Shown in pieces: positions 28,165-61,204 of a DNA stretch of 64,000 nt; the first letter of the stretch is position 1; every line of letters begins with the position of its first letter. Source of the DNA: a plasmid; sequence record NZ_CP024444.1; one strand, written 5' to 3'. A program made the position numbers and the translations under genes. The notes under the pieces are model-generated. The model was not told where the DNA came from. It made no database searches and saw nothing but the letters and a program-made list of their open reading frames with translations.

Positions 28165-29286
<1,122 letters not shown>

Positions 29287-34125: not shown

Positions 34126-34133
34126 ACAAACTC

Positions 34134-40758: not shown

Positions 40759-40761
40759 AAT

Positions 40762-40905: not shown

Positions 40906-40931
40906 GACATTTATCCCTCTATTTAAAAAAC

Positions 40932-41212: not shown

Positions 41213-41233
41213 AAAACTAACCTTTGCGCAAAT

Positions 41234-43665: not shown

Positions 43666-43686
43666 ACAACCCAATAATTAACAACC

Positions 43687-43967
43687 ATGACCACGGCTTT
43701 TGGTGGTGATGGTTGCAAGCTTTTCAGGCAATCATTCCCACGGCTTTTGGTGGGTATGAGGCCCTCTTGTCTTAGCTCGGATAGTCAAGGCTGGCAAGTA
43801 TGAAACGCAGGCAATCGCCTACGGATCATGCGGCTTGATGACTTATCGCGTTAGCAGGAAGTCAGCAAGACCATGAAGCCGTCAGCGAGTGACAAGAGTA
43901 ATACTGCCAAGACTGACGTTGCTGGCGTCTTTTTGCCAGCAATCCGCCAAAGTCTTTATCAGTTTAA
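43687..43967. repeat. 281 bp non-coding repeat, copy B
   Basis: Near-identical to 40932-41212. In both copies it sits immediately distal to a conserved promoter module. Confidence 0.8.
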
Positions 43968-44656: not shown

Positions 44657-45043
44657 TTAACCTGTAAAGTTAAAGTAGTGAAAGCTTGCGCGTGTACCGT
44701 TACCTGTTAAGCCATCAGATAAGATACCATACAAACGGTATAGCACATCATGCACTGCATCCGAGCCACAGCTGCGTATCACTAGGTTACCGTTTCTATT
44801 CATACGCTCACCAAGCACCTTATGAAGAATTGGCGTGATGTTCATAAATTTATTGTCTTTGACCAAACCAAAGCGGATTTGGTGGGTGTAACCGCTTGCT
44901 GATACATGGGCTTCATTAGCAACCACATCGACGGTGTGGCGGTTATTCCACATGTATTCAAGCACTTCGCCCATGTCGTTATCGACAGATGGGTTATCTT
45001 GCATCAGGGTAATGATATTTGGGTTTTGAATAGATGTTGTCAT
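44657..45043 (-). CDS. hypothetical protein
   Basis: 128 aa. Conserved module at 45047-45185. Terminator-like CCCTAGTCATCGCACTAGGG + T7 downstream. Confidence 0.6.
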   Translation of the reverse strand: MTTSIQNPNIITLMQDNPSVDNDMGEVLEYMWNNRHTVDVVANEAHVSASGYTHQIRFGLVKDNKFMNITPILHKVLGERMNRNGNLVIRSCGSDAVHDVLYRLYGILSDGLTGNGTRASFHYFNFTG

Positions 45044-45333
45044 ACGTGTTTATCCTTTTGGTTGGGGTTGGTTGCGAGCCTATCTCGTTTCCATGTGCTA
45101 ATAATAACGCTTTTAGCGTGTTTAATCAAGCGGTTTAACCGTGTTTATTGGTATTTTCAGATGAACGGTAACCGAAAAATGCCGACCCTACCCACCCATA
45201 AGTACGACCCATTTGCACTAGCCATCACTTGAAAATAGCACCAATCATGCCTGCCAGCTGTGCCCATCAACCACGCCAGTCAACAATAAAAAAACCTGTC
45301 GTCTGACAGGTCTTAGTAAGTGTGGGGGTGGCA

Positions 45334-46266
45334 TTAGGCGCGTGAGAGTAAAGCTGGTGTGTTTTGCTCAAATGGCGTCACGATGTAGCTAACGTTGCCA
45401 TTAAAATCAGCACTACCAATGCATGATAACGGCTTACCAATGAAATTGTCTTTAATCGGTCTGCCTTTGGCGTCACTGGTAACCGCCTGTACCAATAAGA
45501 TGGTATCAAAGTTTTCGCTATTCATGCCAAGCTTGACCACTTGGTAGAACAGTTTGGCATCGGGTTTGCTAGTTGAGCTTGCCTGTAAAAAATCACCGAC
45601 CTTTAATTGCTCGTTGTATTGGTTTTCTACCATATCCAAGCTTAGGGTGAGCTGCTTGTAAACTTCAATCAAGGCTTCAAACAAGTCAGCCGGGTTATCA
45701 AAATGGCAAGCACTGCTTTGGTTAAATACGGCAATACCGATAGGGCGTTTACCGTCATAAGCCACAATCATCATGATACTAGCGTTCAAGTAGCTTAAAA
45801 TTACATCGGTCCAGGTGGCGTTGAATTTTTCTTTGACCAGTGCGCGACGTCCCTGTACCAATTGATTGCTTTCAAAGTTGTTGCGTGACTCGTTATCGTC
45901 GACGACAAGTTTACCCTTTGGGCTTAATTGGTTGTAGGCAACTTGGGCTTGCTTGATGGTAAATTGGTCAATGTATTTGACATACTGACTAATTTCTTCA
46001 ATGGTGGTTATCATGTCAGGATAAAACAAGGTATTTAGGTTTTTAAGCGGCTGCCCGGTGGGTACGTGCATCTTAGACTGGTTGTCGTGCGTTCTAATCA
46101 CAGTAAAAGGTGGGGTCAGTAGTGTGCCTTTGCTGTGGATTTTGCCGTCATCATTGACCAGCGCATTGTGCCCAGCTTTGCTTTCAGCCATCCAGCTGCC
46201 CAGCATCAGCTTATGATTTTTACTGTATTTGAAGTTATCAATAATAGCGATTAGGGTGTTTTTCAT
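45334..46266 (-). CDS. unknown-function protein, member 1 of a six-paralog family (about 310-350 aa)
   Basis: Shares the family blocks GTLLTPPFTV, SIMMIVAYDGKRPIGIAVFN and the C-terminal IGKPLSCIG block with the 47605, 48760, 52447, 54211 and 60245 genes. Confidence 0.7.
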   Translation of the reverse strand: MKNTLIAIIDNFKYSKNHKLMLGSWMAESKAGHNALVNDDGKIHSKGTLLTPPFTVIRTHDNQSKMHVPTGQPLKNLNTLFYPDMITTIEEISQYVKYIDQFTIKQAQVAYNQLSPKGKLVVDDNESRNNFESNQLVQGRRALVKEKFNATWTDVILSYLNASIMMIVAYDGKRPIGIAVFNQSSACHFDNPADLFEALIEVYKQLTLSLDMVENQYNEQLKVGDFLQASSTSKPDAKLFYQVVKLGMNSENFDTILLVQAVTSDAKGRPIKDNFIGKPLSCIGSADFNGNVSYIVTPFEQNTPALLSRA

Positions 46267-46557
46267 GATGGTTATCCTTTTGGTTGGGGTTATGGTGTCG
46301 AGCCTATCTCGTTTCCATGTACTTATAATAACGCTTTAACCGTGTATAGTCAAGCGGTTTAACCGTTTATATACAAGCTATTCGACGGATGGCTGGCGCA
46401 GGCGCGATGTGTGTTAACCCACACTCCCCCATACATAAGCTCTTATAGCACTAGCTATCGCTTGAATTAGATCAGCTCGCCTGTCCAATACCCACCGATG
46501 CGATGGGCATAAAAAAACTTGCTAGGGTTAACTAGCAAGTCTGTTGTTTGGGTGGGC

Positions 46558-47316
46558 TTATGCTAAGGGACGTTTTTTGCTCTTGGATTTATCATTTTTA
46601 CGGCATTCATTTAATGCCACAAAACTTTTAGCAAGGGTTAGGATGCCTTCTTTATATACTTTCCAAAAATCTAAGGCATCGAATTCCATTCGGGCTATCT
46701 CGCTACTGCTAAAATTTTCCCATTCTTCGATGGTGTGGCATTTACAGCCGATACGGATTTTGTCATTCATCAAGCTGATAAACCACTGATAATCATATAA
46801 ACACAATACCGGATAAGGTAGCTTGGCGAAGGTGATATTTGCACCACGAAAAATGGCTTGTTCAATGTCGCATTGGGTGAAGTCGGTTTGTTTCAATGAT
46901 GCGTTGGTAAAGTTGGTATTAATGGTATTGGCATTGGTAAAAATTGAGCAATCAAGGTTACAGCCATCAAGATGGGTTAATTCTAGGTTGCTATCCGTAA
47001 AGTTACAATTGCTAAGGTTGGCTTGATAAAAATAAGCTTGGCGTAAATCTGCGTTGGTAAAATTTACCCGACGTCCTTTTACATTGGTCATGTTGGTTTG
47101 GCATAAGTTAGCATTTTCAAAATTGGCATTGCTGATATCGCAGTTAATAAGGCTTGCACCGAATAAATTTGCACCGCTTAGGTTTGCACCTGTTAAATCA
47201 AACCCTTTTAAGTCCATGTCTTTTAAGTCGATGTTGCGTAAGTCGGCTTTAACTAGGGTGTCTAAATCAAGTGTGATAGTCGATTTGTTGTATACATGCT
47301 TGATGGTGATAGCCAT
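46558..47316 (-). CDS. pentapeptide-repeat protein with conserved C-terminal Cys module (RIGCKCHTIEEWENF)
   Basis: Tandem A(N/D)LxG pentapeptides throughout. The C-terminal module is shared with three paralogs. Confidence 0.85.
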   Translation of the reverse strand: MAITIKHVYNKSTITLDLDTLVKADLRNIDLKDMDLKGFDLTGANLSGANLFGASLINCDISNANFENANLCQTNMTNVKGRRVNFTNADLRQAYFYQANLSNCNFTDSNLELTHLDGCNLDCSIFTNANTINTNFTNASLKQTDFTQCDIEQAIFRGANITFAKLPYPVLCLYDYQWFISLMNDKIRIGCKCHTIEEWENFSSSEIARMEFDALDFWKVYKEGILTLAKSFVALNECRKNDKSKSKKRPLA

Positions 47317-47319
47317 GAG

Positions 47320-47476
47320 AGTATTCCTTTTGGTTGGGTGATGGTAGCGAGCCTATCTCGTTTCCATGTGCTTATAATAACGCTTTAACCGTGTATAATC
47401 AAGCGGTTTAACCGTGTTTTTACCCATTTTCCGATAAACGGTAAAAGCGTTTTTCGGGTCGGCTGACACGTTTCCC
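47320..47476 (-). promoter_or_regulatory. conserved promoter/5'UTR/RBS module
   Basis: The -35 TTGATT (plus 47397-47402) and -10 TATTAT (plus 47374-47379) are separated by a 17 nt spacer. Confidence 0.7.
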
Positions 47477-47604
47477 TCCAGGTAAGAATGTTTTTTTGAT
47501 ATAGCGATCGTTTGATATAGGCCATCACGCACGCCCAAACAGCGAGCCAAAAAAAACGCCTTACTATCAAGTAAAGCGTTGGGTGGGTGGGTCAAGGCTT
47601 ATCG

Positions 47605-48648
47605 CTAAATACCGTATTTGGACTTAAAAGTTTCAGTCGGAAAGTTGGTCATGACCTTGTCATGTTTGGCAGTCACCATGATTTGTGTATTAACGACAGT
47701 CACAAAACATTCAATCGGTGGTGTGATGTATGCGCCTTGTTTTGGCATAGTGGTCGCTAACATGGGGTTGTCGGCATCTTCAACAAAACCACTAATACCA
47801 CGGATGATTAACGTTTGACCACCATAAAAATCATCGTTGACCACATCAATCACTTCATAGTTTTGACATAAGCCCATTAATAGCCATTTTGAATAAGCAC
47901 TGCTATAACAAATGATATCACCCACCTGAAGTGACGGGTTTGATTGGGTGTTAAGTGATGGCTTGATAGCATGACCAAGTTCGACATATAAATCTGCCAT
48001 TAATTTTAAAATCAAGTTTTGACCTTTGTATTCAATTACGCCACGATGGGTAAACAACACAAGCCCACGATGGGTACTAGCGGTGTTATAGGCAAATACC
48101 ATAAACTCACCATCACGGTAGACGCTTAACAATTCGCTATCAGCATAGTCAAGGTCGGTACAGATGTAGTTTTGGCGAGCAAGGTACAATGGGTCGTTTA
48201 AAAATGCGTTGGGGTCTTGGGGGTGTTGGGCAATATCAAGCACCGCTTTGTCAGTGGCTTTGTAGGCATCATGGAATGAATTGAGCATATTTTGGTCAAG
48301 GGTTTGGACGTATTGTTCCATCTTAGTTTTGCAATCATATACCACATGGTAACTGCTCACCCATTCACCTTTATAAAAGGATGGATATTTACCACTATTG
48401 GGGTTTTCCATCACCCAAATGGCGGTTTCTTTGCTGTATTTAATCTCGCTATTGGGTAAAAACATCGCTTTGGTTACGATAAAGCCGTTAGTGCCGTTTT
48501 GTCTGATTAATGGCTTGATGCTATCAATGCGGTCTTGGATTTCATCAATCAGTTGGGCGTGGTCATGGCTTGTAATCACGCGCTTAGTAAGGTCGTAAAA
48601 ACGTGGGATTGATGTGTTTTGTGGTTTGAGTAAAACGATATCGCTCAT
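47605..48648 (-). CDS. unknown-function protein, paralog family member 2
   Basis: 347 aa. Blocks GEFMVFAYNTASTHRGLVLF and GDIICYSS...LIIRGISGF. Confidence 0.65.
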   Translation of the reverse strand: MSDIVLLKPQNTSIPRFYDLTKRVITSHDHAQLIDEIQDRIDSIKPLIRQNGTNGFIVTKAMFLPNSEIKYSKETAIWVMENPNSGKYPSFYKGEWVSSYHVVYDCKTKMEQYVQTLDQNMLNSFHDAYKATDKAVLDIAQHPQDPNAFLNDPLYLARQNYICTDLDYADSELLSVYRDGEFMVFAYNTASTHRGLVLFTHRGVIEYKGQNLILKLMADLYVELGHAIKPSLNTQSNPSLQVGDIICYSSAYSKWLLMGLCQNYEVIDVVNDDFYGGQTLIIRGISGFVEDADNPMLATTMPKQGAYITPPIECFVTVVNTQIMVTAKHDKVMTNFPTETFKSKYGI

Positions 48649-48759
48649 GGGGTTATCCTTTTGGTTGGGGTCGGATGCGAGCCTATCTCGCTGTCCATGA
48701 GAGTATTATAACGGTTTTACCGTGTATAATCAAGCGGTAAAACCGTTTTTTATGGTTAA

Positions 48760-49746
48760 TTAAGCCACTGCCGGATGATGGTTTGGGTGGGTACCATAAA
48801 CATCAAGCACATTTAAGGCGTGTCTTGTCCCTGCCAGTCCATTAAATATCACCACACCATCCGCGCCTGTGTACAAGCAGATATCAAGGGGTGCGCCAAT
48901 ATACTTACCGCGAATAGGTTGGAACTTTTTATCAAACATAATCGCTTGCATCTTGCCTGTCTGCATCTGCCCACTATTTGGCGTATCAAGGTGGGTGACT
49001 TCATAAAAATGGGTATGAGAGCATTCGTCCATGGCATTGGCTAAAATCGTACCTATCTCAATTGGCTTGCTGTCATTGGCGTGGCTTAATGCCTTTTGGG
49101 TATCGACGTGGTCTTCAATCGCATCATATAGGTGCGCCATGACCAATAGAATACTATTCCACCCGTGATAAAAATAGGTGGCATGGGGCAAGCACAAGGC
49201 ATAGCCTTTTTTGTGTTCTTCGGTGGTGGCAAACAATAAAATATCATCATCAAGCCAACTGCCAATTAACTCAACATAGCGAGCATTAAAATAGCTTTTT
49301 ACGCCCTCTAAGCGATTGCTATACAATGGGTGCAAGTGGCTGTGGATGTGGTAGCCTTGCTTTTGGACAATGGCTTTGGTCTGTTCGCTTGCATCCTTGA
49401 GCCTTTCTTCAAAGTCAGTGATTTGCTGACGGTCACGCTCAAGCACGAATTGACGAGCCGACCACAACTCCCCAAAAAAGTAACTAGGCGTGGTGTATTC
49501 AGCATCAAGTAACGGGCAATCATTGCGTGACGTGAGCACATAACGCCCATTGTTATTGACCGATAGCAAACAAGGCGGCTGAAATAGCGTACCATCACAA
49601 AAATAGACGCCATCTTGAACGTGGCTTTTTTTGGTGACCCGTTGAAAAGGTTGTGAGCAAGTTTTGCTTAGTCCGCGCATTTCTTCGCATAGGGCTAGAT
49701 GGTCGGTGCTGTGTACGATACTTTTCATCAAAACATATAAATTCAT
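48760..49746 (-). CDS. unknown-function protein, paralog family member 3
   Basis: 328 aa. Blocks DGTLFQPP, DDILLFATTEEHKKGYALCL and RGKYIGAPLDICLY. Co-transcribed with the small ORF at 49823-49939. Confidence 0.65.
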   Translation of the reverse strand: MNLYVLMKSIVHSTDHLALCEEMRGLSKTCSQPFQRVTKKSHVQDGVYFCDGTLFQPPCLLSVNNNGRYVLTSRNDCPLLDAEYTTPSYFFGELWSARQFVLERDRQQITDFEERLKDASEQTKAIVQKQGYHIHSHLHPLYSNRLEGVKSYFNARYVELIGSWLDDDILLFATTEEHKKGYALCLPHATYFYHGWNSILLVMAHLYDAIEDHVDTQKALSHANDSKPIEIGTILANAMDECSHTHFYEVTHLDTPNSGQMQTGKMQAIMFDKKFQPIRGKYIGAPLDICLYTGADGVVIFNGLAGTRHALNVLDVYGTHPNHHPAVA

Positions 49747-49822
49747 GGCAATTATCCTATTGGTTTTAAGTGGTGGGTGGGCGGTAAGTGAGCCTTTCTC
49801 AACTAACCGTTAATCAGCATTA

Positions 49823-49939
49823 TTATTTTTTAAGCACGCGTTTAACACTGGGGGCGACTTTGCGTTGAGCCGTTCCCAAATAGCGATACATCATTAAAGA
49901 CAATGGGTAAATAAAAGCACTGATTTGTAAAAAATTCAT
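49823..49939 (-). CDS. small hydrophobic peptide (38 aa) MNFLQISAFIYPLSLMMYRYLGTAQRKVAPSVKRVLKK
   Basis: Unannotated ORF directly after a conserved RBS. One TM with a basic tail. Confidence 0.35.
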   Translation of the reverse strand: MNFLQISAFIYPLSLMMYRYLGTAQRKVAPSVKRVLKK

Positions 49940-49942
49940 GGC

Positions 49943-50095
49943 CGTTCCTTTTGGTTGGGTGATGGTAGCAAGCCTATCTCGCTGTCCATGTAGTTATAAT
50001 AACGCTTTAACCGTGTATAATCAAGCGGTTTAACCGTGTTTTTACCCATTTTCCGATAAACGGTAAAAGCGTTTTTCGGGTCGGCTGACACGTTT
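49943..50095 (-). promoter_or_regulatory. conserved promoter/5'UTR/RBS module
   Basis: Same module, driving the small ORF and the 48760 gene. Confidence 0.65.
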
Positions 50096-50228
50096 CCCTA
50101 CAATTTACTATCCTTGTACTAGCTATGGCTTGATGTAGATCAGCTCGCCTGCCTAACGCCTGCCAAAATCGGTACAAAAAAAGCCACAATACGATGATTG
50201 TAGCTTTGGGTGGGTGGGCGTGATGCGA

Positions 50229-50975
50229 CTAGGCGACTTGCTTTTTAGATGGCGTGATTTTTTTAAGCTGTTGCTCACTAAACGCGGTAGCGATGGCTAA
50301 AATTTCCTCTTTGAATTCTTCCCAAAACTCAATGGCGTAGTCATCCATATCAATGATTTCGTTACCATCAAAATTACGCCATTCTTCAATGCTATAACAT
50401 TTACAGCCAATGCGTAGCATATCGTCACATACGCTGATAAACCACTCATAGTTATACAGGCAAAGCAATTTTTTGGGTAATACGGTGCAATCTAACACGG
50501 TATAGTCAAAAACCGTTCGACGAATATCCGACTTCATCAAATTAGCTTCAGTTAAATTGGCACAGGTAAATTGCGTGGTGTCCAAATTGGTGTTGTTAAA
50601 GACCACCCATTGAAAATTTGAACGGTATAAATTGGATTTGCTTAAATTCACATTGTCAAAAATTGCATGTTTAAAGTCGGCATTGGAAGCCACCACCATT
50701 GCCATATTCGCATTACTAAAGTCGGCATTGCCTGCCCTTGAGCCATTTAAATTGGCGTGAGTCATGTTGGCATGACTAAAATTAGCTTCAAACAGTTCGC
50801 AGTCGGTCATAATAGCCCGTGATAAATTGGCACCGCTAAAATTTGCCTTGGATAAATCAACACTGGTAAAAATAGCACCAGCTAAGTTTTGACCGCTAAA
50901 GTCATAGCCTTGCAGGGTATCAGCATCGATAACTAGGTCGTCTTTCTTGCCAAAAAATTTAATGGTAATACTCAT
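50229..50975 (-). CDS. pentapeptide-repeat protein with C-terminal Cys module (RIGCKCYSIEEWRNF)
   Basis: 248 aa, paralog of 46558. Confidence 0.85.
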   Translation of the reverse strand: MSITIKFFGKKDDLVIDADTLQGYDFSGQNLAGAIFTSVDLSKANFSGANLSRAIMTDCELFEANFSHANMTHANLNGSRAGNADFSNANMAMVVASNADFKHAIFDNVNLSKSNLYRSNFQWVVFNNTNLDTTQFTCANLTEANLMKSDIRRTVFDYTVLDCTVLPKKLLCLYNYEWFISVCDDMLRIGCKCYSIEEWRNFDGNEIIDMDDYAIEFWEEFKEEILAIATAFSEQQLKKITPSKKQVA

Positions 50976-51313
50976 GGGTGTGTCCTTTTGGTTGGGGGTC
51001 GGAATTGAGCCTATCTCGTTTCCATGATGCTATTATAACGGTTTTAGCGTGTTTAATATAACGGTTTTAGCGTTTATTTATCGATTTTCCGATAAACGGT
51101 TTTAACGTTCACCACGCCCACCACCCACCTACCCCGACCCTTAGTCATGCTTGCCTTAGAGTTCGCTTGCGCTAGGTGCATCCTTGCTACCGGATAAAAC
51201 CATCGCCAAAAAAAATGCTATACAGGTGTATAGCATTGACTGGTGTGACTAAGCTTCATTAGACTAGACGGCATCAGGCATGTCATGACTGCCGTATGGG
51301 TTGGCATAGTCAG

Positions 51314-52141
51314 TTAGCTGACTTGTTTTTGTCCCTGAAAGATGCTCACGCCCATACCGACATCGTCATGTTTTTGTTGATATAAGCCGTCTTTAAATTG
51401 GTAGTCTTTTTCATACGAATGGTAGAAAGCACAGGCGATTTCGAGTATTTCATATTTATGCCAACGCCAAAACGATAAGGCTTCATCGCCCATATTCTCA
51501 ATTTGCTCTGCGTTAAAGTCTTTCCATTGTTTGATGGTATGACACTGGCATCCAATACGGATGGTATCGGCACAAATAAAAATTGGCCAGTTGTAATGAT
51601 ACAAAAACATCACCTTAAAAGGAAATAAGGCGGTCATGATGTTTGTTCCCCAAAAAATAGCGTAGCGGATGTCTGCTTGCTGAAAGTCGGCACAGCTAAT
51701 AGTGGCGTTAAAAAAATTGGTTGCTAGTAAATCTGCCTTATCAAAACTTGCTTGCACAAGACTTGCGCCCGTGAATTGGGCATACTGACAGTTGGCATCA
51801 TGAAAATTACTAAAATTAAAATTGGCATGACTGGCATGAATGCTTTTGAGATTGGCGTGTTTAAAGCGTCCCTTCAGTAGCGTTGCGCTAGTAAAATTAG
51901 CCCCTTGTAAATCAGCGTTTTCAAAATTGACATGATTTAACGTCGCCTTATCAAAACGCGCATACTGTAAATTGCATCCGCTAAAATTGGCATTGGTTAA
52001 GTCCATGCCGATAAAGTCAGCACCTTGTAAATTGGCACCGCTAAAATCATGCCCCACAAGACTGTCGCCCTCGATGGTTGCAAGGATGGCTTTTGATTTG
52101 AAGGAATTATGCGTAAGGTAGCTTTGAATTTCGATGGTCAT
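51314..52141 (-). CDS. pentapeptide-repeat protein with C-terminal Cys module (RIGCQCHTIKQWKDF)
   Basis: 275 aa paralog. Confidence 0.85.
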   Translation of the reverse strand: MTIEIQSYLTHNSFKSKAILATIEGDSLVGHDFSGANLQGADFIGMDLTNANFSGCNLQYARFDKATLNHVNFENADLQGANFTSATLLKGRFKHANLKSIHASHANFNFSNFHDANCQYAQFTGASLVQASFDKADLLATNFFNATISCADFQQADIRYAIFWGTNIMTALFPFKVMFLYHYNWPIFICADTIRIGCQCHTIKQWKDFNAEQIENMGDEALSFWRWHKYEILEIACAFYHSYEKDYQFKDGLYQQKHDDVGMGVSIFQGQKQVS

Positions 52142-52446
52142 ACTTTTATCCTTTTGGTTGGGTGTTGGAATTGAGCCTTTCTCGTTTCCATGATGCTATT
52201 ATAACGGTTTTAGCGTGTTTAATATAGCTGTTTAACCGTGTTTTTACTCATTTTCCGACGAACGGTAAAACCGTTTTTAGGTTGGCTGGCACGTTTCCCC
52301 GTACTTAATGACCCTTGTACTAGCCATATCTTGAGATATGTACTAGCCATATCTTGAGATAGCCGATCGGCACCGACTGCCGTTTGTTAGCCATCAGCCA
52401 CAAAAAAGCATGGTGTGGTTACCATGCTTGGGCATATCAAGTCATC

Positions 52447-53445
52447 TTAGCGTGGGACGGCTTCAACTACCCTTAATCGGGCATTGTACAGCAAAAGCGA
52501 CTGCTGACTATCTACTTTTAAATAACCGTTGACGTGTTTGGCAATACAAGCAATCTCACTGCCTAAAAATGCATTGGTGATTGGATTGTTTAGGCTGTCA
52601 TAGGCAATACAGCGCAGTTTAATGGCGTTGCCTTGTTTGCTGATGTTCTCGCCTACTTGGGTGATTTGGTAGTATTGGCTCGGGTTGGTGTTGTTAAACC
52701 GTTCAAGTCTTACAATACTACCGACACCGATATCTAGCATATTTTCCGGTTGTTGGTTGTTGTAAAGAAATAATTTGGCGGTTTCACAAAAACCATAGAG
52801 TTTGCTCATGACGTCTAAAATGCTATTAAGTCCATAGCTTAAATACATACTGTTGTCGCCATACAGCGCATAGCCTTGTGAATAGCTTTCTTTGGTGGGC
52901 GTGGTGCAAGCAAATAGCATGATGGTATCATTGGCATAACTGCCGATAAGTTCAGCTTGCGTATTTTGAAAATACTGCTTGGTGAATGCTAAACGTGGGG
53001 CATGCAGTGGGTGAGCTTGGCTTTGCTCGCTCACCTGGTTGTTTTGTGCCAAGTTGCGCACGTCTTTACTGGCGTTTTCATACGCAAATTGAAAGCATCC
53101 GATTGCGCTTAAATCATCACATTTGATACGCAACAGGGCAATTTCTTCGCTCAAAAAGCGGTGATTTTTTTGTAGCTCGGTACAATCGATTAAATACTCG
53201 CCATTGATGGGTTGTACGGTGTAAAAATCTTCTTCCCCCACGACATTACTACGCTCAAGGGTTGTGATAGGCTGTAACAAGGTGGGCGTGGTGACAAAAC
53301 CGGATGCAGTTTTTTCGATGGTGGCACGGTGCTGTTTCTCAAGCTTGAATAACTGCTTAATGAGTGCCGAATGATTATCGCTTGCCATGACAAGACGCAT
53401 GACTTGTTCAGGGGTGATAGGGGCTTGGGTGCTATGGCTTGGCAT
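52447..53445 (-). CDS. unknown-function protein, paralog family member 4
   Basis: 333 aa after moving the start to the MPSHSTQ Met at 53445. Blocks DTIMLFACTTPTKESYSQGYALYG and IKLRCIAYDSLNNPI. Confidence 0.65.
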   Translation of the reverse strand: MPSHSTQAPITPEQVMRLVMASDNHSALIKQLFKLEKQHRATIEKTASGFVTTPTLLQPITTLERSNVVGEEDFYTVQPINGEYLIDCTELQKNHRFLSEEIALLRIKCDDLSAIGCFQFAYENASKDVRNLAQNNQVSEQSQAHPLHAPRLAFTKQYFQNTQAELIGSYANDTIMLFACTTPTKESYSQGYALYGDNSMYLSYGLNSILDVMSKLYGFCETAKLFLYNNQQPENMLDIGVGSIVRLERFNNTNPSQYYQITQVGENISKQGNAIKLRCIAYDSLNNPITNAFLGSEIACIAKHVNGYLKVDSQQSLLLYNARLRVVEAVPR

Positions 53446-53754
53446 AATCTTTTTCCTTTTGGTTGGGGTCGGATGTGAGCCTATCTCACAATCCATGTGC
53501 TTATAATAACGCTTTAACCGTGTATAATAAAGCGGTATTAGCGTTTTTCTACCCATTTTCCGATGAACGGTAAAAGCGTTTTTAAAGTCGGCTGGCACGT
53601 TTCCCTGTACTTTAGGGGGTTTACCTGATTTAGTGATAGCTTGGGCTAATACTGGGTTAGTAGGCTTGGTCGCAGCGGTATGCCAATCGGCATTAAAAGC
53701 TTGGGCAACAAAAAACCCATGCACTGGCACGGGTTTGTTTGGGTGGGCGTGGGG

Positions 53755-53874
53755 TTACATTCTGGCACAGCGAAACACATAATAAATCACGGCAATGAAT
53801 AATACCAAAACAACGTTGCTGTCAAATAAAGACATAATGGCATTAAAGGCTTCGAGTTGTGATGAATATTGCAT
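53755..53874 (-). CDS. small hydrophobic peptide (39 aa) MQYSSQLEAFNAIMSLFDSNVVLVLFIAVIYYVFRCARM
   Basis: Unannotated ORF with its own conserved module (53878-54010). C-terminal TM helix. Confidence 0.3.
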   Translation of the reverse strand: MQYSSQLEAFNAIMSLFDSNVVLVLFIAVIYYVFRCARM

Positions 53875-54210
53875 ATTTTTTCCTTTTGGGTTGGGTGTAG
53901 GAATTGAGCCTTTCTCGTTTCCATGATGCTATTATAACGGTTTAACCGTGTATAATCAAGCGGTATTAGCGTGTATCTATGGTTTTCCGACGAACGGTAA
54001 AACCGTTTTATCGGGCAAATCCTAGCCCGACCGCCCTAAAATTCATGTTATTTACTTGCGTTAGTGATAGTTTGACTTAGGGTGCACCAGCCACAGATGC
54101 ACTAGCCGCGCCTGTTGCCCAGCTTGCCAGCAAAAAAACCACCAACCGATTTGGCGGTCAGTGGTCGGGCAGAATTTACTAGCTTGGATAGCCGCTAAAA
54201 TTGCCTGTGC

Positions 54211-55224
54211 TTAGTGTGCGTTAGGCTCATACTTGGCAAGTTCAGTAATGCCACCAAGCGTACTGCCAGCAAATGGCATTAGGTAGCAAGCAATATAGCC
54301 TTCACGATATAGGTGGACATACGCATTCATTTTGGGCGAAATCATACTATTTTTAACAGGCAGGGATTTGTCGTCATGCAAGATAGCGCGTAGGGTTATC
54401 ATAACGGCTTGTTTGTTTAATGTGGGACTTACCTCTACCACCCGGTAGTAACGATAACAGCGGATGTTGAGATTGCGAAAATCTTCAAAAATATCACCCA
54501 CCTGTACCAGCTTTTGAAATGGCGCATTTTCAATAATCACCGCAGCTGCGATGACTTGGTACAATCGGCACATGACGGTAAAACAATGTTGCAACCCACT
54601 AAAAAACTCGATGCCATCAGCATGGCATAGGGTGAAACCAGGGTAATCATGATTGGCGGTCATAAATACCATAATCGATCCATCCAAATAGCTACCCACC
54701 AAATTGGTAACATTCATATTTTGCGCTGAAAAATAACGTTCAGCAATTTTTAGTCGTCCATCATGCAAGGTATCTAGCACCGACGTCACTTCGCTGGCAT
54801 GATTGTTCTGAATTGCCATTATGGTTGCATCATACGCCTTGTTATACGCATCTTTAAACTCTTGGATGGCGTTATGGTCGGTTTCTTTCACATATTTTTT
54901 AGCCTGTGCCAACGACTCAAAGTAACGATACGGTTTAGAGTCGATGCGACTTATTGAGTACATATACGCTCGCCAGTCCGTCTTGCCCATCCATTGTTTT
55001 TTAATGTTGTCACGGTTTAGGGTGAATGGTGGCAGTAATAACGTACCGCTACAGACATAATCACTCCCCTGTTTGGTAAGATTGTAATCATACGCTTGGG
55101 TGGCACTTTGCAAGTCTTCAATCAATTCATCATGGTTGCGACTGGAAAATAAAGCGACACACAGGTCAACTAAGGTAGCAAAACCTTTGGTGGTTGCCGC
55201 GGCTTGGGCAATGGCAGTAGACAT
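54211..55224 (-). CDS. unknown-function protein, paralog family member 5
   Basis: 338 aa after moving the start to the MSTAIAQ Met at 55224. Blocks SGTLLLPPFTL, GSIMVFMTANHDYPGFTLCHADGIEFFSGL and GDIFEDFRNL. Confidence 0.65.
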   Translation of the reverse strand: MSTAIAQAAATTKGFATLVDLCVALFSSRNHDELIEDLQSATQAYDYNLTKQGSDYVCSGTLLLPPFTLNRDNIKKQWMGKTDWRAYMYSISRIDSKPYRYFESLAQAKKYVKETDHNAIQEFKDAYNKAYDATIMAIQNNHASEVTSVLDTLHDGRLKIAERYFSAQNMNVTNLVGSYLDGSIMVFMTANHDYPGFTLCHADGIEFFSGLQHCFTVMCRLYQVIAAAVIIENAPFQKLVQVGDIFEDFRNLNIRCYRYYRVVEVSPTLNKQAVMITLRAILHDDKSLPVKNSMISPKMNAYVHLYREGYIACYLMPFAGSTLGGITELAKYEPNAH

Positions 55225-55588
55225 AATTTTTATCCTTTTGGTCGGGGTCGGACGCAAGCCTATCTCGCTATCCATATAGCTATAATAACGGTTTAACCGT
55301 GTATAATCAAGCGGTTTAACCGTGTTTTTACCCGTTTTCCGATAAACGGTAAAACCGTTTTTCGGGTCGGCTGACACGTTCCCCCGTACTTTAGGATGCT
55401 TTTTTTGATGTAGTAATAACTTGGTTTAGATCGGTTCACTCGCCCATCGACGACAACTTGCCAGCAACAGGCAATAAAAAACCCACTGTCATGTGACAGT
55501 GGGGGGATTTTCCCAACCACGAGAAAACTAGAAAATTCGGTAATATTTAGCTTGCCAGCATCGCCAGCTGTGGACTTATCGCTTCAAT

Positions 55589-55978
55589 TTAGTTAAACGC
55601 TTGGGCAATCTTAGTGCCACGGGTGTTAATTTCTTGTTCGATGTCGCTAACTATCTTGGTAATTGATACATTGCCACCGTTATTAAAGACACGCAGATTG
55701 TCTTTTAACTCGTCGAAACTACTTTCAATATAAAATTTGCCATCTTGCCAAGCGATGTCAATGTTGAACGCTTTATTGCCAACAATCACCAAAACGTGCG
55801 ATTTATAACGCCCTGTACGTGTCTTAACCGTTTTTCGCTCAATTTTAAATACGACGTTCACATAACTGCCGTTTGGCAAACACACGGTAGAGTCAACCAG
55901 GTTTGGGTTATCAATGAGTTTACCCTTCACTTTGATTTTGCGTAGGCTGTCGATACTAAAAACTGGAATAGTTGACAT
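55589..55978 (-). CDS. hypothetical protein
   Basis: 130 aa after moving the start to the MSTIPVF Met at 55978. Confidence 0.55.
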   Translation of the reverse strand: MSTIPVFSIDSLRKIKVKGKLIDNPNLVDSTVCLPNGSYVNVVFKIERKTVKTRTGRYKSHVLVIVGNKAFNIDIAWQDGKFYIESSFDELKDNLRVFNNGGNVSITKIVSDIEQEINTRGTKIAQAFN

Positions 55979-56234
55979 ACATTTTCCTGTGGGTTGGGTG
56001 CCGGAATTGAGCCTATCTCGTTTCCATGATGTTATTATAACGGTTTTAGCGTGTAAATGCAAGCGGTTTAACCGTTTATTTAATAATATTTAGTACGCCA
56101 GCTCATTGACGTATCAAGCATGGATTGATAACACCCGTATTTACTAGGTCAGTATGATAATTAATTGCGTTACCACCATGCCAAAAATTAAAAGGACTGC
56201 AATAGCAGTCCTAGTGTTTGATTAGATGCGATGA

Positions 56235-56753
56235 CTATAACGACATGCCGAGTGCATCATGTACGCTGTTAGTGATGATTTTCATCATGTCGGGGTTTTT
56301 GCTAATTTCTCTTAGGATGTTGCTAACCATGGTTTCCTGTAAATCGATTTCAGGATGCTCACCATCATATAAGATAAATTGCAAATCGGCATCATTTTGC
56401 AAGGCTTCAGGGATTTCAAAACGGATGATATTGTCTTCGTTTAACTCCACCATAGAAGTACCCACTGGAACATAGCTCAATTCATTGACGTCACGTAACA
56501 TATCGTCGATTAGCGAATTGGTAAGGTCTATGAATGGGATAAAATCAGGAAGGGCTTGTACACACGCCACAAAATGAATCTCTATACCTGACTCGGTGAC
56601 AAGGTTTAACTCCATAATACGACGGGCAATGACATGGTCAAAACCATACGGGCGTGCTTCAGGAATGATACCTTTAAAGCGAGTGTAGCTGTCAATTGAC
56701 GTCACAGTCAGTTTGGCGTTGCTTAAATTGTCGATGATGTCTTGGATAGTCAT
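56235..56753 (-). CDS. hypothetical protein
   Basis: 172 aa. Conserved module at 56757-56905. Confidence 0.6.
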   Translation of the reverse strand: MTIQDIIDNLSNAKLTVTSIDSYTRFKGIIPEARPYGFDHVIARRIMELNLVTESGIEIHFVACVQALPDFIPFIDLTNSLIDDMLRDVNELSYVPVGTSMVELNEDNIIRFEIPEALQNDADLQFILYDGEHPEIDLQETMVSNILREISKNPDMMKIITNSVHDALGMSL

Positions 56754-57053
56754 ATTTTTTCCTTTTGGTTGGGTGTAGGAATTGAGCCTTTCTCGTTTCC
56801 ATGTAGTTATAATAACGGTTTAACCGTGCATAGTCAAGCGGTTTAACCGTGTTTTTACCCATTTTCCGACGAACGGTAAAAGCGTTTTTCGGGTCGGCTG
56901 GCACGTTTCCCCATACGTTACGATGCTTTTTTTGCATTAGTGATAACTTGATATAGGATGTTGCCGAGCGTACCCATAAGGCATGCCAAACCTACCTGTC
57001 AAAGCAAAAAACCCTAGTCTTTGGCTAGGGTCTTAATTGTGGGGTTTAAGTGC

Positions 57054-57428
57054 TTAGGCGGCATTTAGGTAGGTTGCATAGATTTGGCTTAAGGTGGTTG
57101 GCTTAAAGTCTAAGTCAAGTTTCATGCTGTCGATTTCACAAAGTTCAACCAAGCTAATATAACCAAGCTCGCTAGGCCAATTGTGCAAACGCACTAAACC
57201 GAATGCTTGATATTGTGGCTCTTCCATGTCTTTTTCAGTGATGAACCAATGGCAAGTATAACCGTTTGGTGTTTCAACCATGTAATGCAAGTGTGCCACC
57301 GCTTCATCGCCTAGCCCGTCTTGCTCATAGGTTTTTGGCATGGTGTCAAAGATTTCGTCAATTTTGGCTTTTTGCTCTTCAGTCAGTGCGTTTAATTGGC
57401 GTGGTGGTACATAAGCTGAATTTTTCAT
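57054..57428 (-). CDS. hypothetical protein
   Basis: 125 aa after moving the start to the MKNSAYV Met at 57428. Confidence 0.55.
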   Translation of the reverse strand: MKNSAYVPPRQLNALTEEQKAKIDEIFDTMPKTYEQDGLGDEAVAHLHYMVETPNGYTCHWFITEKDMEEPQYQAFGLVRLHNWPSELGYISLVELCEIDSMKLDLDFKPTTLSQIYATYLNAA

Positions 57429-57718
57429 AATCTTTTCCTTTTGGGTTGGGTTTAGGAATTGAGCCTTTCTCGTTTCCATGTGCTTATAATAACGGTTTTA
57501 GCGTGTATAATCAAGCGGTTTTAGCGTTTATTTGATGATTTCCCGACGAACGGTAAAAGCGTTTTTTGGGAATGACTGACCTGTTCGCCCCATATGTCAG
57601 GGTGTTTTTTTTGCATTAGTGATGGCTTGATTTAGACCAGCTGGCTTACCGCCAAACGTTGGCGACAAAAAAACCTTGCAAGCTGTGCAAGCAAGGTCTT
57701 AATAATTTCACTGGCTGG

Positions 57719-58426
57719 CTAGAATGTTGACATTTTAGCAAAGGCAATCATGCGCTTTTTGTAGTCGTGCCAAAAATCCAGCGCGTCACTGCTCATTTTA
57801 TCAATGTCTTCATCGCTAAAGTTTTCCCATGTTTCGACAAGGTGGCATTGGCAACCAATTCTTAACATGCCATGGCGTGCGCTGACAAACCATTGATAGC
57901 CATATAGCATCATCACATCACCATCGATATGAGCATACTCTAGTCGTGAGCCGTTGAAGATGGTTGTATCAATATTGGTATTGTCCAATTTGGCATGTTT
58001 AAGCTCACAATCTGCCAAGCTAGTATGATGCAAATTTGCAAAGTCAAAATTAGCGATGCGTAGGTCGCAGTCGGTTATCAGGGCTTTGGTAAGGTTTGCT
58101 TGAAAGAAATTGGTTTCCATCAATTCGGCATGATGGGCGGATGCATGCAATAAATTGGCTTTGCTAAAGTCGGCATTACTGGCTTTGGCGTTGGTTAATG
58201 ATGCGCCCACCAAGTTTGCATTGCTAAAGTTTGCCCACTCGATACAACTATCATTGAACTGTGCGCCTGTTAAGTTTGCACCGCTAAAATTGGTCTTGCT
58301 TAAGTGCAAGTTACTTAAATTGGCATTTTGTAAGTCCAAGTTGCTTAAGTCTGCGCCTGCAAGCGTATCAAGCTCTAACGTGATAATTGGGTTGCCTGTG
58401 TTTTTATGCTCGATAGTAATCGCCAT
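57719..58426 (-). CDS. pentapeptide-repeat protein with C-terminal Cys module (RIGCQCHLVETWENF)
   Basis: 236 aa after moving the start to the MAITIEH Met at 58426. Confidence 0.85.
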   Translation of the reverse strand: MAITIEHKNTGNPIITLELDTLAGADLSNLDLQNANLSNLHLSKTNFSGANLTGAQFNDSCIEWANFSNANLVGASLTNAKASNADFSKANLLHASAHHAELMETNFFQANLTKALITDCDLRIANFDFANLHHTSLADCELKHAKLDNTNIDTTIFNGSRLEYAHIDGDVMMLYGYQWFVSARHGMLRIGCQCHLVETWENFSDEDIDKMSSDALDFWHDYKKRMIAFAKMSTF

Positions 58427-58720
58427 GATTTTTTTCCTTTTGGTTGGGTGTTGGAATTGAGCCTTTCTCGTTTCCATGTGCTTATAATAACGCTTTAACC
58501 GTGTATAATCAAGCGGTTTTAGCGTTTATTTGGGGGTTTTCCGACGAACGGTAAAACCGTTTTTAGACTCGGCTGGCATGTTTCCCCGTACCTAAGGGGG
58601 TTTATCTGATTTAGTGATAACTTGATGTAGTCCATCACGCTCGCCTGTCGACGACAACTTGCCAGCAGGCAATAAAAAACCCACCTAATGACAAGGTGGG
58701 TATTATCCGGTAGTAATCAA

Positions 58721-59335
58721 TTATTTGGCTTGGGTGGCTGCCACATAAAAATATGCGCCCTCTTTGCCGATATGGTGTCGAAACTGCTCACCAAAGCGTT
58801 TAACCGTGCTTTCGGTAATCGGGAATGCTTTGCCACGATGACTAAATGTTATGATTTTCTCGTCGATGTGTTGCGGTAGGTTTAATTCAGGGGCATCACT
58901 TAGCACAAATAGCATGCGTTCACGTTCAGCGGTGACGTGTTGTTTGGCTTGGTTGTATGACGCTTTTTTATCGGCATGGGCTTGCTTGTTTTTGGCGTTG
59001 CTGTCAATGAGTGTTTGTATTTGCTCACAGCTCACAGCACCGTTGTTGGTCGCAAGTTGGATAGCCGTGTTAATGGTCTTGGTATCAAACCAACCTTTTT
59101 GGATATGTTCATTCGCCCATTTAAAATAGTCTTGGGTGCGCTTGGTGTTGTTCATGTTATAGCGATTGCGATTGGCGATTTCTTTGTCGCGCATTCGAGA
59201 AATCACATTATTGGGCGCACCACTACCACGAAAATTTTCAATGAGCGCAGACACGTCACTACCAAAACGCCCATTATTCAATAGGTTGTTAATTTGAGTT
59301 TCCGACTCAAGGATATCTGATACAAAAGTATTCAT
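58721..59335 (-). CDS. hypothetical protein
   Basis: 204 aa. Its upstream module is truncated (UTR and RBS present, promoter half missing), so it is probably co-transcribed with ssb. Confidence 0.6.
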   Translation of the reverse strand: MNTFVSDILESETQINNLLNNGRFGSDVSALIENFRGSGAPNNVISRMRDKEIANRNRYNMNNTKRTQDYFKWANEHIQKGWFDTKTINTAIQLATNNGAVSCEQIQTLIDSNAKNKQAHADKKASYNQAKQHVTAERERMLFVLSDAPELNLPQHIDEKIITFSHRGKAFPITESTVKRFGEQFRHHIGKEGAYFYVAATQAK

Positions 59336-59422
59336 AAAAACGTTCCTTTTGGTTGGGGTTGGTTGCGAGCCTATCTCGTTTCCATAATGAAATTATAGCG
59401 GTTTAAGGGATTAAGTGCTTAC

Positions 59423-59917
59423 TTAAACTTTGGCTTTTGCCTTAACTAAAAAGGCTTCAGGGATGCCATCATCTTGTTGTACCATTGGTTGCTGATTAGC
59501 TTGTACCATTGGTTGGCTATTGGCAACAGGTTGGCTTGCATACTCATCTTGGTCAGGGAATGGGATATTGGGTCGTCCACCACCGCTACTGCCTAGCATT
59601 TGCAAAGAGTCGCCATAGATTTCAGTCACATAGCGTTCAATGTTGTTGCTGTCCGTGTATTTGCGGTTGCGTAGTTCACCCTCAATAAAAACGCCAGCAC
59701 CTTTTTTTAGGTAATTTTGGGCGATTTCTGCGAGTCGGTTGAACAACACCACGCGATGCCATTCGGTACGCTCTTTTTTCTCTTGGGTAGTCTTGTCTGT
59801 CCAAGTTTTCGTAGTAGCCATTGAAATGGTTGCGCACACGCCACCACTTGGCAATTGACGTACATCAGGGTCAGCACCTAAGTTGCCGATTAAAATTACT
59901 TTGTTTACACCTTTCAT
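59423..59917 (-). CDS. ssb: single-stranded DNA-binding protein (plasmid-type SSB)
   Basis: OB-fold N-terminus VNKVILIGNLGADPDVRQLPSGG...RVVLFNRLAE. A Gly/Pro/Gln-rich tail ends in an acidic DDGIPEAF-like motif. Start moved to the MKGVNKV Met at 59917. Confidence 0.88.
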   Translation of the reverse strand: MKGVNKVILIGNLGADPDVRQLPSGGVCATISMATTKTWTDKTTQEKKERTEWHRVVLFNRLAEIAQNYLKKGAGVFIEGELRNRKYTDSNNIERYVTEIYGDSLQMLGSSGGGRPNIPFPDQDEYASQPVANSQPMVQANQQPMVQQDDGIPEAFLVKAKAKV

Positions 59918-59920
59918 AAC

Positions 59921-60075
59921 CTTATCCTTTTTAAAGAGTGTTCTAAACCAAGTGAGCCTATCTCGTCTTGATGATTTCATTATAACGGTTTAACCGTGTA
60001 TAATCAAGCGGTTTAACCGTTTTTTATGATTTACCGATAAACGGTAATAGCGCGGATAAACGGTTTTCAAGGGTT
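59921..60075 (-). promoter_or_regulatory. conserved promoter/5'UTR/RBS module (ssb copy)
   Basis: Same module as the other units. Confidence 0.65.
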
Positions 60076-60244
60076 TGGACACGCGGCCCTACAGTTAATC
60101 GCTTTTTGCTTTTCACCTTTGCATTAGCGACCACTTGATATAGGTTGTTCCTGCCAGCGGTAGCCAAGCAACGGGGTGCTAAAAATGGCAATAAAAAAAC
60201 CCTAGTAAGCGTTAACTAGGGTTATTTCGTTATCCGGTGGTGGT

Positions 60245-61204
60245 TTAAGCTGCCAATTTGTCATCAATTGATGGTGATTGAGTCCGTAATACCGCATATC
60301 TTAGATTATTATTGACCGTAGCATGGGCTTCATAGCGTTTGTCTTCGCTGTTATAAGTCACAAAGCAAGGAATATCGCCTGTTAAGTATTTACCACGGAT
60401 TGGCGTGCCGTGGGCGTCAAAAGCAATACAGCGGATAGTAATTTCACCGCCTAGCTTGGTTGATAGCATATTAAGTTGGGTCACTTCAAAATAACGACGT
60501 GGTCTATCGCTATCATACTTAACGTTTTCAAAAATAGTGCCCAGCTCGATAGCATGAATTGGCTTGTCAACCTTGCGCAAATTATCAGATACCGCATAAT
60601 AAATAAATCGCATAGCTCGAAGAATTTTATTTAGCCCACTAAAAAACTCCATGCCGTTTTGGTGAAATACTACTAGCCCTGTCTTGCCCTGTTCATAGCA
60701 GGCAAACAACATGATATCACCGCCCATGTAGCAAGCCTCAAGCTCAACCTGTTGCGATTTCATGTGCTGACAAGCGAATTCATAACGGGCTTGGTAAAGT
60801 GGAAGATTTTTGCTGTTGGCATCGATTTGGTTATGCTCGGCAATGGCTCTGACGTTTTCGTGACTAATCACATCATAGCCCAGTGAAAAAATCTGCATGT
60901 TATTCCCATTCTTGATGAATTTTTTACAGTCTGCTAGTTTCCGCATACGCACTTTATAAGTGGGGTGATCAATTTGCGGTAAGCATAACGATGGGTCATC
61001 ACAAGTAATTTGCCATTCGCCATCATTATTTTTATGTATGGTGACCGCAGGGGTTAACAGGGTTGCGGCACAAGTGTACCCAACACCATCTTTTTTATTT
61101 TTAAAGACGTTGGGGTGTTTTTCACTTAGCGAATTTAACTGCTCATGTAGGTCATGATGGTTGGTGCTGGTAACCACTAATTTAACAATGTCTGAAAGTT
61201 GCAT
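60245..61204 (-). CDS. unknown-function protein, paralog family member 6
   Basis: 319 aa. Blocks AATLLTPAVTI, GDIMLFACYEQGKTGLVVFHQNGMEFFSGLNKIL and ITIRCIAFDAHGTPIRGKY. Confidence 0.7.
   Translation of the reverse strand: MQLSDIVKLVVTSTNHHDLHEQLNSLSEKHPNVFKNKKDGVGYTCAATLLTPAVTIHKNNDGEWQITCDDPSLCLPQIDHPTYKVRMRKLADCKKFIKNGNNMQIFSLGYDVISHENVRAIAEHNQIDANSKNLPLYQARYEFACQHMKSQQVELEACYMGGDIMLFACYEQGKTGLVVFHQNGMEFFSGLNKILRAMRFIYYAVSDNLRKVDKPIHAIELGTIFENVKYDSDRPRRYFEVTQLNMLSTKLGGEITIRCIAFDAHGTPIRGKYLTGDIPCFVTYNSEDKRYEAHATVNNNLRYAVLRTQSPSIDDKLAA

Follow-up and report, generated by a model that had tools for sequence, protein, structure and literature searches.

Gene array and its upstream cassette

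The window (here, the whole 64,000-nucleotide stretch of plasmid DNA that was analyzed, from sequence record NZ_CP024444.1) contains four genes for pentapeptide-repeat proteins, named PRP1 to PRP4. A preliminary description had already pointed to them, and all four open reading frames are present, on the minus strand. They lie in an array of single-gene units in which every gene is on one strand; the features discussed below are as follows.

40087..63720, minus strand: array of 23-24 single-gene units, each with a promoter-operator-leader cassette, continuing past the right end of the window
42612..43508, minus strand: ardC (ArdcN plus zincin metallopeptidase domain), same cassette upstream, true ATG at 43508
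46515..46542, minus strand: terminator-like hairpin and T-run after PRP1
46558..47316, minus strand: PRP1, 252 aa, N-terminal cap, 30 pentapeptides and C-terminal module (module at nt 46624-46827)
47317..47454, minus strand: PRP1 cassette, operator-like ACGCTTTTACCGT, then ACGGTTAAACCGC-TTGATT-(17 nt with ACGGTTAAAGCGT)-TATTAT and leader GGAAAC-GAGATAGGCTC...CCAACCAAAAGGA
50180-50207: terminator-like site after PRP2
50229..50975, minus strand: PRP2, 248 aa, module at nt 50283-50486, Tyr replacing the module His
50976..51112, minus strand: PRP2 cassette, variant -35 region and TATAAT -10
51214-51237: terminator-like site after PRP3
51314..52141, minus strand: PRP3, 275 aa, module at nt 51428-51631, longer C-terminal tail
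52142..52278, minus strand: PRP3 cassette, variant -35 region and TATAAT -10
57675-57691: terminator-like site after PRP4
57719..58426, minus strand: PRP4, 235 aa, module at nt 57731-57934
58427..58564, minus strand: PRP4 cassette, TTGATT-17-TATTAT
59423..59917, minus strand: ssb, same cassette upstream, true ATG at 59917

The start of PRP4 is the ATG at 58426; a longer reading frame to 58477 merely extends into the upstream cassette. The PRP genes had been described as sharing a promoter with ardC and ssb, which is right in that PRP1 to PRP4, ardC, and ssb are each preceded by their own copy of the same cassette, but not in the sense of one operon, as each PRP gene also has its own terminator-like site; read from the sequence, the PRP genes are separate single-gene transcription units. 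The window has 23 to 24 copies of the cassette, and the array of plasmid pMOXF1 has at least 38. The array appears to be a repressor-type regulon that would also drive ardC and ssb. The helix-turn-helix protein encoded at 41234-41710 is one candidate repressor, and ACGGTTTAACCGT is a putative repressor site.

In the CUP-element regulon of the IncN plasmid pKM101, a repeated promoter/operator likewise precedes individual establishment genes, ardC and ssb among them. The ArdK regulon of the IncW plasmid R388 is a network of the same kind (PMC3937220). The likeness to these two regulons is one of organization, and the array differs from both in its far larger scale and in the conserved 5' leader that its cassette also carries. 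The ArdC protein of R388 counters restriction in the recipient cell (PMC7213743), and a cassette shared with ardC and ssb fits a role for the PRPs at entry into a new host. Neither an oriT nor a relaxase was recognized (Pfam scans of the large pMOXF1 open reading frames gave no relaxase), and the array is therefore only a candidate leading region; MOB-suite typing placed pMOXF1 in the non-mobilizable class, even though the plasmid has type IVB secretion genes.

Pentapeptide-repeat rods

PRP1 to PRP4 are diverged copies of a rod-shaped pentapeptide-repeat protein on a Moraxella-type plasmid, with an overall identity of 36-41%. In a Pfam scan all four matched Pentapeptide and Pentapeptide_4 (E 1e-17 to 1e-35), scoring 61-120 bits against cut-offs of 20-38 for PF00805 / PF13599, which places all of them in these families. 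Each contains 30 uninterrupted pentapeptides (residues 19-168 in PRP1), with no insertions or deletions between the four copies. Identity among the paralogs is 16-18% at pentapeptide positions 4 and 5, 37-58% at core positions, and 46% in the module. The right-handed quadrilateral beta-helix proposed for them earlier is supported by structure prediction: the AlphaFold2 model has a pLDDT of >95 over residues 20-130, and nearly every one of the 49 PDB matches that Foldseek gave at E<=1e-3 is a pentapeptide solenoid or solenoid domain, the solved structures of QnrB1, MfpA, and AlbG among them.

The PRPs resemble MfpA, Qnr, AlbG, and McbG in being cytoplasmic proteins of similar size with the same beta-helix (Foldseek probability, 1.0), a C-terminal helical element, and a mildly negative charge. 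They are not members of the Qnr or MfpA families, however, with 40-50 bits for NCBIfam NF033086 (Qnr) against a cut-off of 240 and 24-35 bits for NF000349 (MfpA) against a cut-off of 360; the solved proteins nearest to them in sequence are neither Qnr nor MfpA but pentapeptide proteins of consensus design or from cyanobacteria. Loops A and B of Qnr are absent from all four proteins, whose 30 consecutive pentapeptides have no insertion. Two further differences from this group are that the C-terminal element of the PRPs is a 65-aa alpha/beta domain foreign to solved pentapeptide proteins and that their genes lie in what is probably an establishment regulon, not in a resistance or immunity locus.

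The C-terminal module and its family

The C-terminal module, of about 65-68 aa, follows the 30 repeats in all four PRPs, and alignment confirmed that it is shared. Residues L10, Y11, Y13, W15, R25, I26, G27, C28, C30, W36, F39, I44, M47, A51, F54, W55, and K59 are among those invariant in the four proteins. The motif first quoted for it is only approximate ("WFIS" occurs in 2 of the 4 copies, and "ALDFW" in 2 of the 4). Most of the invariant residues are hydrophobic or aromatic, which fits a purely structural domain and gives no information on a target. The module gave a confident AlphaFold2 model (pLDDT, 89), and it is found after pentapeptide, YdcK/hexapeptide-like, LRR-like, and Cys-rich repeats; as modeled, it is an independent alpha/beta domain. 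That it lies outside the characterized Qnr and MfpA proteins was upheld: matches of the PRPs to PDB sequences are restricted to residues 19-169, none of them extending past query residue 169, and the module profile matched no PDB sequence. Its fold is absent from every solved pentapeptide protein and unlike any solved structure, and Pfam holds no entry for it.

A Cys/His zinc-binding role, raised as a possibility in the preliminary description, was rejected on conservation. Among 150 representatives, Cys28 is conserved in 99% and His31 in 85% (Tyr in 14%), Cys30 is present in 11%, and no other Cys or His in the module is conserved; this leaves one Cys and one His, against the at least 3 or 4 conserved metal ligands by which a zinc module was judged. 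Two proteins, P0124 and P0125, each contain two helix-module units, and in the first module of these Arg or Ser replaces the Cys. To judge from these residues, the tail module is not a zinc finger. It is unlikely to be a DNA-binding domain, because it is acidic in three of the four PRPs (pI 4.6-5.9), and a type IV secretion signal is likewise improbable because most homologues are found in phages.

The extent of the family depended on the search method. A full-length PRP query in a word-indexed homology search returned generic pentapeptide proteins and one 99% orthologue, and a profile of the four modules in the same kind of search returned two near-identical fragments only. A search of representative genomes with the four-paralog alignment found no relative; a strict back-translated pattern yielded no more than 20 loci, whose neighboring genes have nothing in common with those of the window except one SSB. 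An exhaustive profile search was needed to reveal the family, giving 2,213 clusters (50% identity) at E<=1e-3 and 375 at E<=1e-10. PHROG 31567 is matched by every one of the 65 modules aligned, those of PRP1 to PRP4 among them (E 7.5e-12 for the PRP1 module). The module is present in 132 phage records but in only 2 of 72,556 PLSDB records; being nearly absent from sequenced plasmids, the family is not typical of leading regions.

PHROG 31567 and 37032 comprise phage "pentapeptide repeat" proteins of unknown function, such as Caulobacter phage BL94 gp020, Rheinheimera phage Barba gp044, and Acinetobacter phage Acba proteins. These have the same module type and overall architecture as the PRPs, namely a short N-terminal cap, an uninterrupted right-handed pentapeptide beta-helix, and the C-terminal alpha/beta domain, and a similar cap (I-x-I-K motif) is found in at least 29 of 108 full-length relatives. 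Whereas the phage genes are usually single copy with a variable number of repeats, the plasmid has four, equal in length and each behind a copy of the same operator-controlled promoter; multiple copies occur elsewhere as three adjacent genes at one locus (L007) and two at another (L019). Homologues lie in early and replication-recombination blocks of phages and prophages: in phage BL94 the gene comes immediately after DNA polymerase I, and on one phage contig it is flanked by genes for an AAA_24 protein and a DUF669 protein. Acinetobacter phage Acba_23 carries its homologue downstream of the CI repressor gene on the same strand, which could mean expression during lysogeny and a role in defense or exclusion. 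PRP1 to PRP4 belong to a large, uncharacterized family of phage and plasmid proteins.

Possible functions of the PRPs

We favor, tentatively, a reading in which the PRPs are establishment-phase rods whose diversified surfaces bind host DNA-processing enzymes, with the module as a cap and dimerizer or a common adaptor. Their synthesis would most likely come in a burst upon entry of the plasmid into a cell without the repressor, because each gene stands alone as one unit of a repressor-type regulon, which would also drive ardC and ssb. Since the core and the tail are conserved while the outward-facing positions have almost fully diverged, each paralog may be a rigid rod that uses its surface to bind and block a host enzyme different from those of the other three, possibly a nuclease, a restriction complex, or a topoisomerase. 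The tail module would supply the shared function, most likely by capping and dimerizing the rod, as the C-terminal helices of MfpA and Qnr do, or else by docking one common partner; pentapeptide-repeat solenoids mostly dimerize via C-terminal helices (PMC10886550). The PRPs are on this account candidate inhibitors of host DNA enzymes. The early and replication-recombination setting of phage homologues and the multiple copies at other loci also count in favor of this reading; the mild acidity of the solenoids, the rarity of the module on plasmids, the failure to find an oriT or relaxase, the gene position in Acba_23, and the mainly hydrophobic or aromatic invariant residues of the module count against it.

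The suggestion that the PRPs are B-DNA mimics that inhibit restriction enzymes, especially Type I, in the manner of ArdA and Ocr, seems unlikely to us. Mimics of the ArdA/Ocr type have a strongly acidic surface, with a pI of about 4. Like them, the PRPs are mobile-element proteins with an elongated shape, a net negative charge in all four cases, and probably early expression, but the acidity expected of such mimics was not found: the solenoids have a pI of 5.0-5.9 and a net charge of -4 to -9 over about 150 residues (whole-protein pI, 4.7-5.95), and some other genes in the array encode far more acidic products (pI 4.3-4.6, net -11 to -19). There is also no sequence or fold relation to ArdA or Ocr (the Pfam scan gave no ArdA family match). 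Coregulation with ardC speaks for mimicry, as does the equal length of the four helices, as if fitted to a fixed binding site; the MfpA/Qnr helix is an accepted DNA mimic (PMC10886550), although the pentapeptide proteins McbG and QnrB failed to block BREX (PMC7261183). DNA mimicry cannot unite the module family, because the module also follows solenoids other than pentapeptide ones.

Binding of topoisomerase as by Qnr, MfpA, AlbG, and McbG, whether protecting gyrase or topoisomerase IV from poisons and toxins (CcdB, ParE, or microcin-like) or tuning supercoiling in plasmid establishment and phage replication, is decidedly unlikely, even though no other role has been established biochemically for pentapeptide proteins of this size in the bacterial cytoplasm (PMC10886550). 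The Foldseek matches, the homologues in phage replication modules, and the topA gene carried on the same plasmid are consistent with it; the low Qnr and MfpA family scores, the uninterrupted repeats without Qnr loops, and the nearest solved sequences are not, and a single conserved target is hard to square with four surface-diverged paralogs. Least probable is another service to the element, such as excluding competing phages or plasmids or scaffolding its own replication or transfer proteins, for although pentapeptide folds serve generally as scaffolds for protein binding (HetL, PipB2, SopA/NleL, DotG, and the Hailong effector HalA) and the Acba_23 homologue runs in the same direction as the CI repressor gene, a PADLOC defense scan gave zero matches, the cassette is common to the PRP genes, ardC, and ssb, and early or replication genes surround most phage homologues.

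A broader and more doubtful proposal than establishment-phase rods is that the module marks a large unrecognized class of phage and plasmid "rod" proteins, in which a new small fold dimerizes or anchors interchangeable beta-solenoids whose fast-evolving surfaces would act as modular decoys, each against a different immune nuclease of the host, the four paralogs being a ready panel against different recipients. The interchangeable solenoids named for such a class are the pentapeptide, hexapeptide-like, LRR-like, and Cys-rich types.

If the PRPs do block host defenses or DNA enzymes, a widespread anti-defense family, spanning those 2,213 clusters and currently without a Pfam entry or solved structure, would be added to the known set, and mobile elements would be using pentapeptide solenoids beyond gyrase protection. 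The regulon itself offers a compact list of candidate establishment genes: dozens of single-gene units, nearly all of them uncharacterized, that share one operator-controlled promoter and leader.

Pentapeptide helix and C-terminal module

The four open reading frames of the preliminary description were all found as described, and we refer to their pentapeptide-repeat products as PRP1 to PRP4.

46558-47316, minus strand, PRP1
50229-50975, minus strand, PRP2
51314-52141, minus strand, PRP3
57719-58426, minus strand, PRP4

The pentapeptide-repeat make-up claimed for them was borne out by matches to Pfam pentapeptide families far over threshold (E, 1e-17 to 1e-35), and the beta-helix is supported by an AlphaFold2 prediction with a pLDDT of >95. 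The proteins align end to end with 36 to 41% pairwise identity; residues 19-168 of PRP1 form 30 unbroken pentapeptides (approximately 7.5 coils), to which PRP2 to PRP4 align without indels. Also as claimed, the helix is followed in all four by a common C-terminal module; it spans about 68 aa, 18 of them invariant, and the motif previously given for it was roughly correct, not exact. Between paralogs, identity is only 16 to 18% at pentapeptide positions 4 and 5, which face outward, against 37 to 58% at the core positions and 46% in the module; rod length is constant, and the rod surface has diverged.

The evidence supports the module as new relative to Qnr and MfpA. Pfam gave no match for it, alone or over 65 homologues, and all 65 aligned modules matched PHROG 31567. 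In a confident AlphaFold2 model built from a 56-sequence alignment (pLDDT 89), the module has four strands and two helices, all short, plus a single long helix. When 1.84 billion representative proteins were searched exhaustively with a module profile, 2,213 relatives were returned at E ≤ 1e-3 (375 at E ≤ 1e-10), the best 150 of which are small (60 to 310 aa) with the module C-terminal. Pentapeptide repeats occur in 60 of the 85 relatives that have >60 residues ahead of the module; the others carry YdcK/hexapeptide-like GNAxV, LRR-like, CxxC-rich, or WYSGKW repeats. An I-x-I-K-type N-terminal cap, as in PRP1 to PRP4, is present in at least 29 of 108 full-length relatives.

Searching with the module by tblastn hit 132 phage records, but of 72,556 records from plasmids only 2. 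In phages, homologues are encoded amid early and replication-recombination genes, for instance in Caulobacter phage BL94 directly 3' of DNA polymerase I and, on a phage contig, with an AAA_24 protein on one side and DUF669/PD-(D/E)XK/helicase/polymerase genes on the other. A prophage homologue adjoins smpB. In an Acinetobacter phage, one lies 3' of the CI repressor gene and on the same strand, so that expression and function during lysogeny are conceivable. Three module-family genes are adjacent in a Methylophilaceae MAG (L007, 3-1516) and two on an Acidobacteriia contig (L019, 6327-7778); two database proteins, P0124 and P0125, each fuse two helix-module units in one polypeptide.

The proposal that the module is a zinc-binding Cys/His domain was not supported, as only two ligands are conserved among 150 representatives. 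By module numbering, Ile26-Gly27-Cys28 is 99 to 100% conserved and His31 85% (Tyr in 14%, PRP2 among them), and the second Cys is kept in only 11%. Two conserved ligands are too few for a mononuclear zinc site inside one chain; a metal site split between two chains is conceivable, but Arg or Ser replaces Cys in the first unit of P0124 and P0125. The near-invariant W15, W36, F39, I44, M47, A51, L52, and W55 are hydrophobic, as is usual in a domain core; Lys59 is 93% conserved.

A repeated cassette and its regulon

PRP1 to PRP4, ardC, and ssb had been described as sharing a promoter. They do have the same promoter sequence, but as a repeated cassette, not one promoter.

Upstream part of cassette, minus strand, operator-like ACGSTTTTACCGT
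Abutting the TTGATT -35 hexamer, minus strand, second near-palindrome ACGGTTAAACCGC
Within the 17-nt spacer, minus strand, third near-palindrome ACGGTTAAASCGT
-10 hexamer, minus strand, TATTAT or TATAAT
Conserved leader, minus strand, GGAAAC-GAGATAGGCTC...CCAACCAAAAGGA, ~50 nt, ATG 5-9 nt downstream

40087-63720, minus strand, regulon array, 23-24 cassette copies
41234-41710, minus strand, HTH_3 (XRE-type) regulator at the array's left edge
42612-43508, ardC
59423-59917, ssb

The three operator-like near-palindromes of each cassette share the form ACGGTTWWASCGT, and the PRP2 and PRP3 cassettes have a variant -35 region. A strict cassette pattern occurs 23 times in the window, at 40120-63660 and on the minus strand only. 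In the related plasmid pMOXF1 it occurs 38 times in the array (203.8-246.3 kb), with two more cassettes elsewhere in the ~158 kb of that plasmid that was scanned. Terminator-like hairpins are ~3 times commoner than in shuffled sequence (62 versus 22), and one lies 3' of each PRP gene. The repeated cassette and these hairpins make each PRP gene a unit of its own within one large regulon, to which ardC and ssb also belong. One reading frame runs open through the conserved cassette, so that ORFs called mechanically start too far upstream in many genes; such extensions (e.g., 43508-43595, 59917-59980, and 58426-58477) yield shared pseudo-peptides ("METRKAQF..." and "...PTRKTLLPFIGKWVKTRLNRLIIHG"), and the true start codons follow an AAGGA ribosome-binding site.

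Reasoning from the analogous R388 ArdK regulon and pKM101 CUP elements, we infer that the cassette regulon would be repressed once established and expressed in a burst on entry. The HTH_3 regulator is a candidate for the repressor acting at the cassette operators. The likeness lies in many units behind a repeated operator-promoter, although the regulon in the window and pMOXF1 is ~10 times larger. The R388 analogue is taken from published work (PMC3937220).

A second paralog family of six diverged copies (310 to 350 aa) is interleaved with the PRP genes.

45334-46266, 47605-48648, 48760-49746, 52447-53445, 54211-55224, and 60245-61204, minus strand, six-copy paralog family

Its members are 13 to 20% identical to the first copy, yet alignable end to end, and have no match in Pfam, PHROG, NCBIfam, or PADLOC. 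A 288-nt direct duplication (98% identity; 40926-41213 and 43680-43967) lies either side of the ardC neighborhood, and a 63-nt repeat (55467-55529 and 62444-62506) contains a perfect hairpin, CCCACTGTCA...TGACAGTGGG, with a terminator score on both strands.

The plasmid setting

The region shares 97.5% identity with pMOXF1 (CP040258.1; 248 kb) of Moraxella osloensis, a culture contaminant, where the PRP counterparts are annotated only "pentapeptide repeat-containing protein." At 14938-21890 and 38513-42080, pMOXF1 has its own Type I restriction-modification system and a second ssb near a fifth pentapeptide protein, which is without the module. P0002, a 98-aa fragment labelled "Mycobacterium tuberculosis," differs by few residues from the C-terminal part of PRP4 and is probably Moraxella contamination in that assembly.

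7764-8882, TnpB gene
9537-19993, plasmid topA with zinc ribbons, ParM homologue, DotM_C, T4SS_TraI, T2SSE ATPase
20297-39390, IS-flanked cargo block: UvrA-like ABC ATPase, NDH-2-type oxidoreductase, DUF3422, glutamate-cysteine ligase, ZIP transporter, cytochrome bd subunit II, and a formaldehyde-detoxification set (esterase, GFA, zinc alcohol dehydrogenase)

DotM_C, T4SS_TraI, and the T2SSE ATPase are type IVB secretion-like genes; in the putative transfer region, the majority of the large ORFs lack a Pfam match. Typing gave the plasmid as "non-mobilizable," neither a relaxase nor an oriT was recognized on it, and the cassette array is a candidate leading region.

Possible host-enzyme binding and DNA mimicry

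We tentatively favor a reading in which PRP1 to PRP4 would be made at establishment or early infection, their diversified rod surfaces would bind host DNA-processing enzymes, and the module would serve as a conserved cap, dimerizer, or adaptor. Anti-restriction DNA mimicry, as first proposed, remains one among several readings. The predicted helix matches solved pentapeptide proteins in Foldseek, including QnrB1, MfpA, AlbG, and HetL; by sequence, the nearest solved proteins are consensus-designed and cyanobacterial ones. The solenoids have a pI of 5.0 to 5.9 and a net charge of -4 to -9, and ArdA and Ocr are far more negative. Qnr and MfpA models score 24 to 50 bits on PRP1 to PRP4, under cut-offs of 240 and 360, and in a published test (PMC7261183) BREX was not counteracted by two other pentapeptide proteins, McbG and QnrB. 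Given this modest charge, these scores, the nearest solved proteins, and the BREX result, DNA mimicry by PRP1 to PRP4 is possible only; because some module-family members use other solenoid types, it is not the family's uniting property. We consider it unlikely that the four are specifically Type I anti-restriction proteins, and slightly less likely still that topoisomerase is what they bind, both being narrower versions of the host-enzyme-binding reading.

Four small, strongly acidic proteins (pI 4.3 to 4.8; net charge -10 to -19) belong to the same regulon.

56235-56753, 57054-57428, 61487-62221, and 62907-63584, minus strand, small acidic proteins

By charge, they would be better DNA-mimic candidates than PRP1 to PRP4; one has a weak DUF2958 match and a PHROG 5203 match. 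PRP1 to PRP4 belong to a known fold family, the pentapeptide beta-helix, as a variant with a new module, and the surrounding regulon may be more unusual than the pentapeptide proteins themselves.
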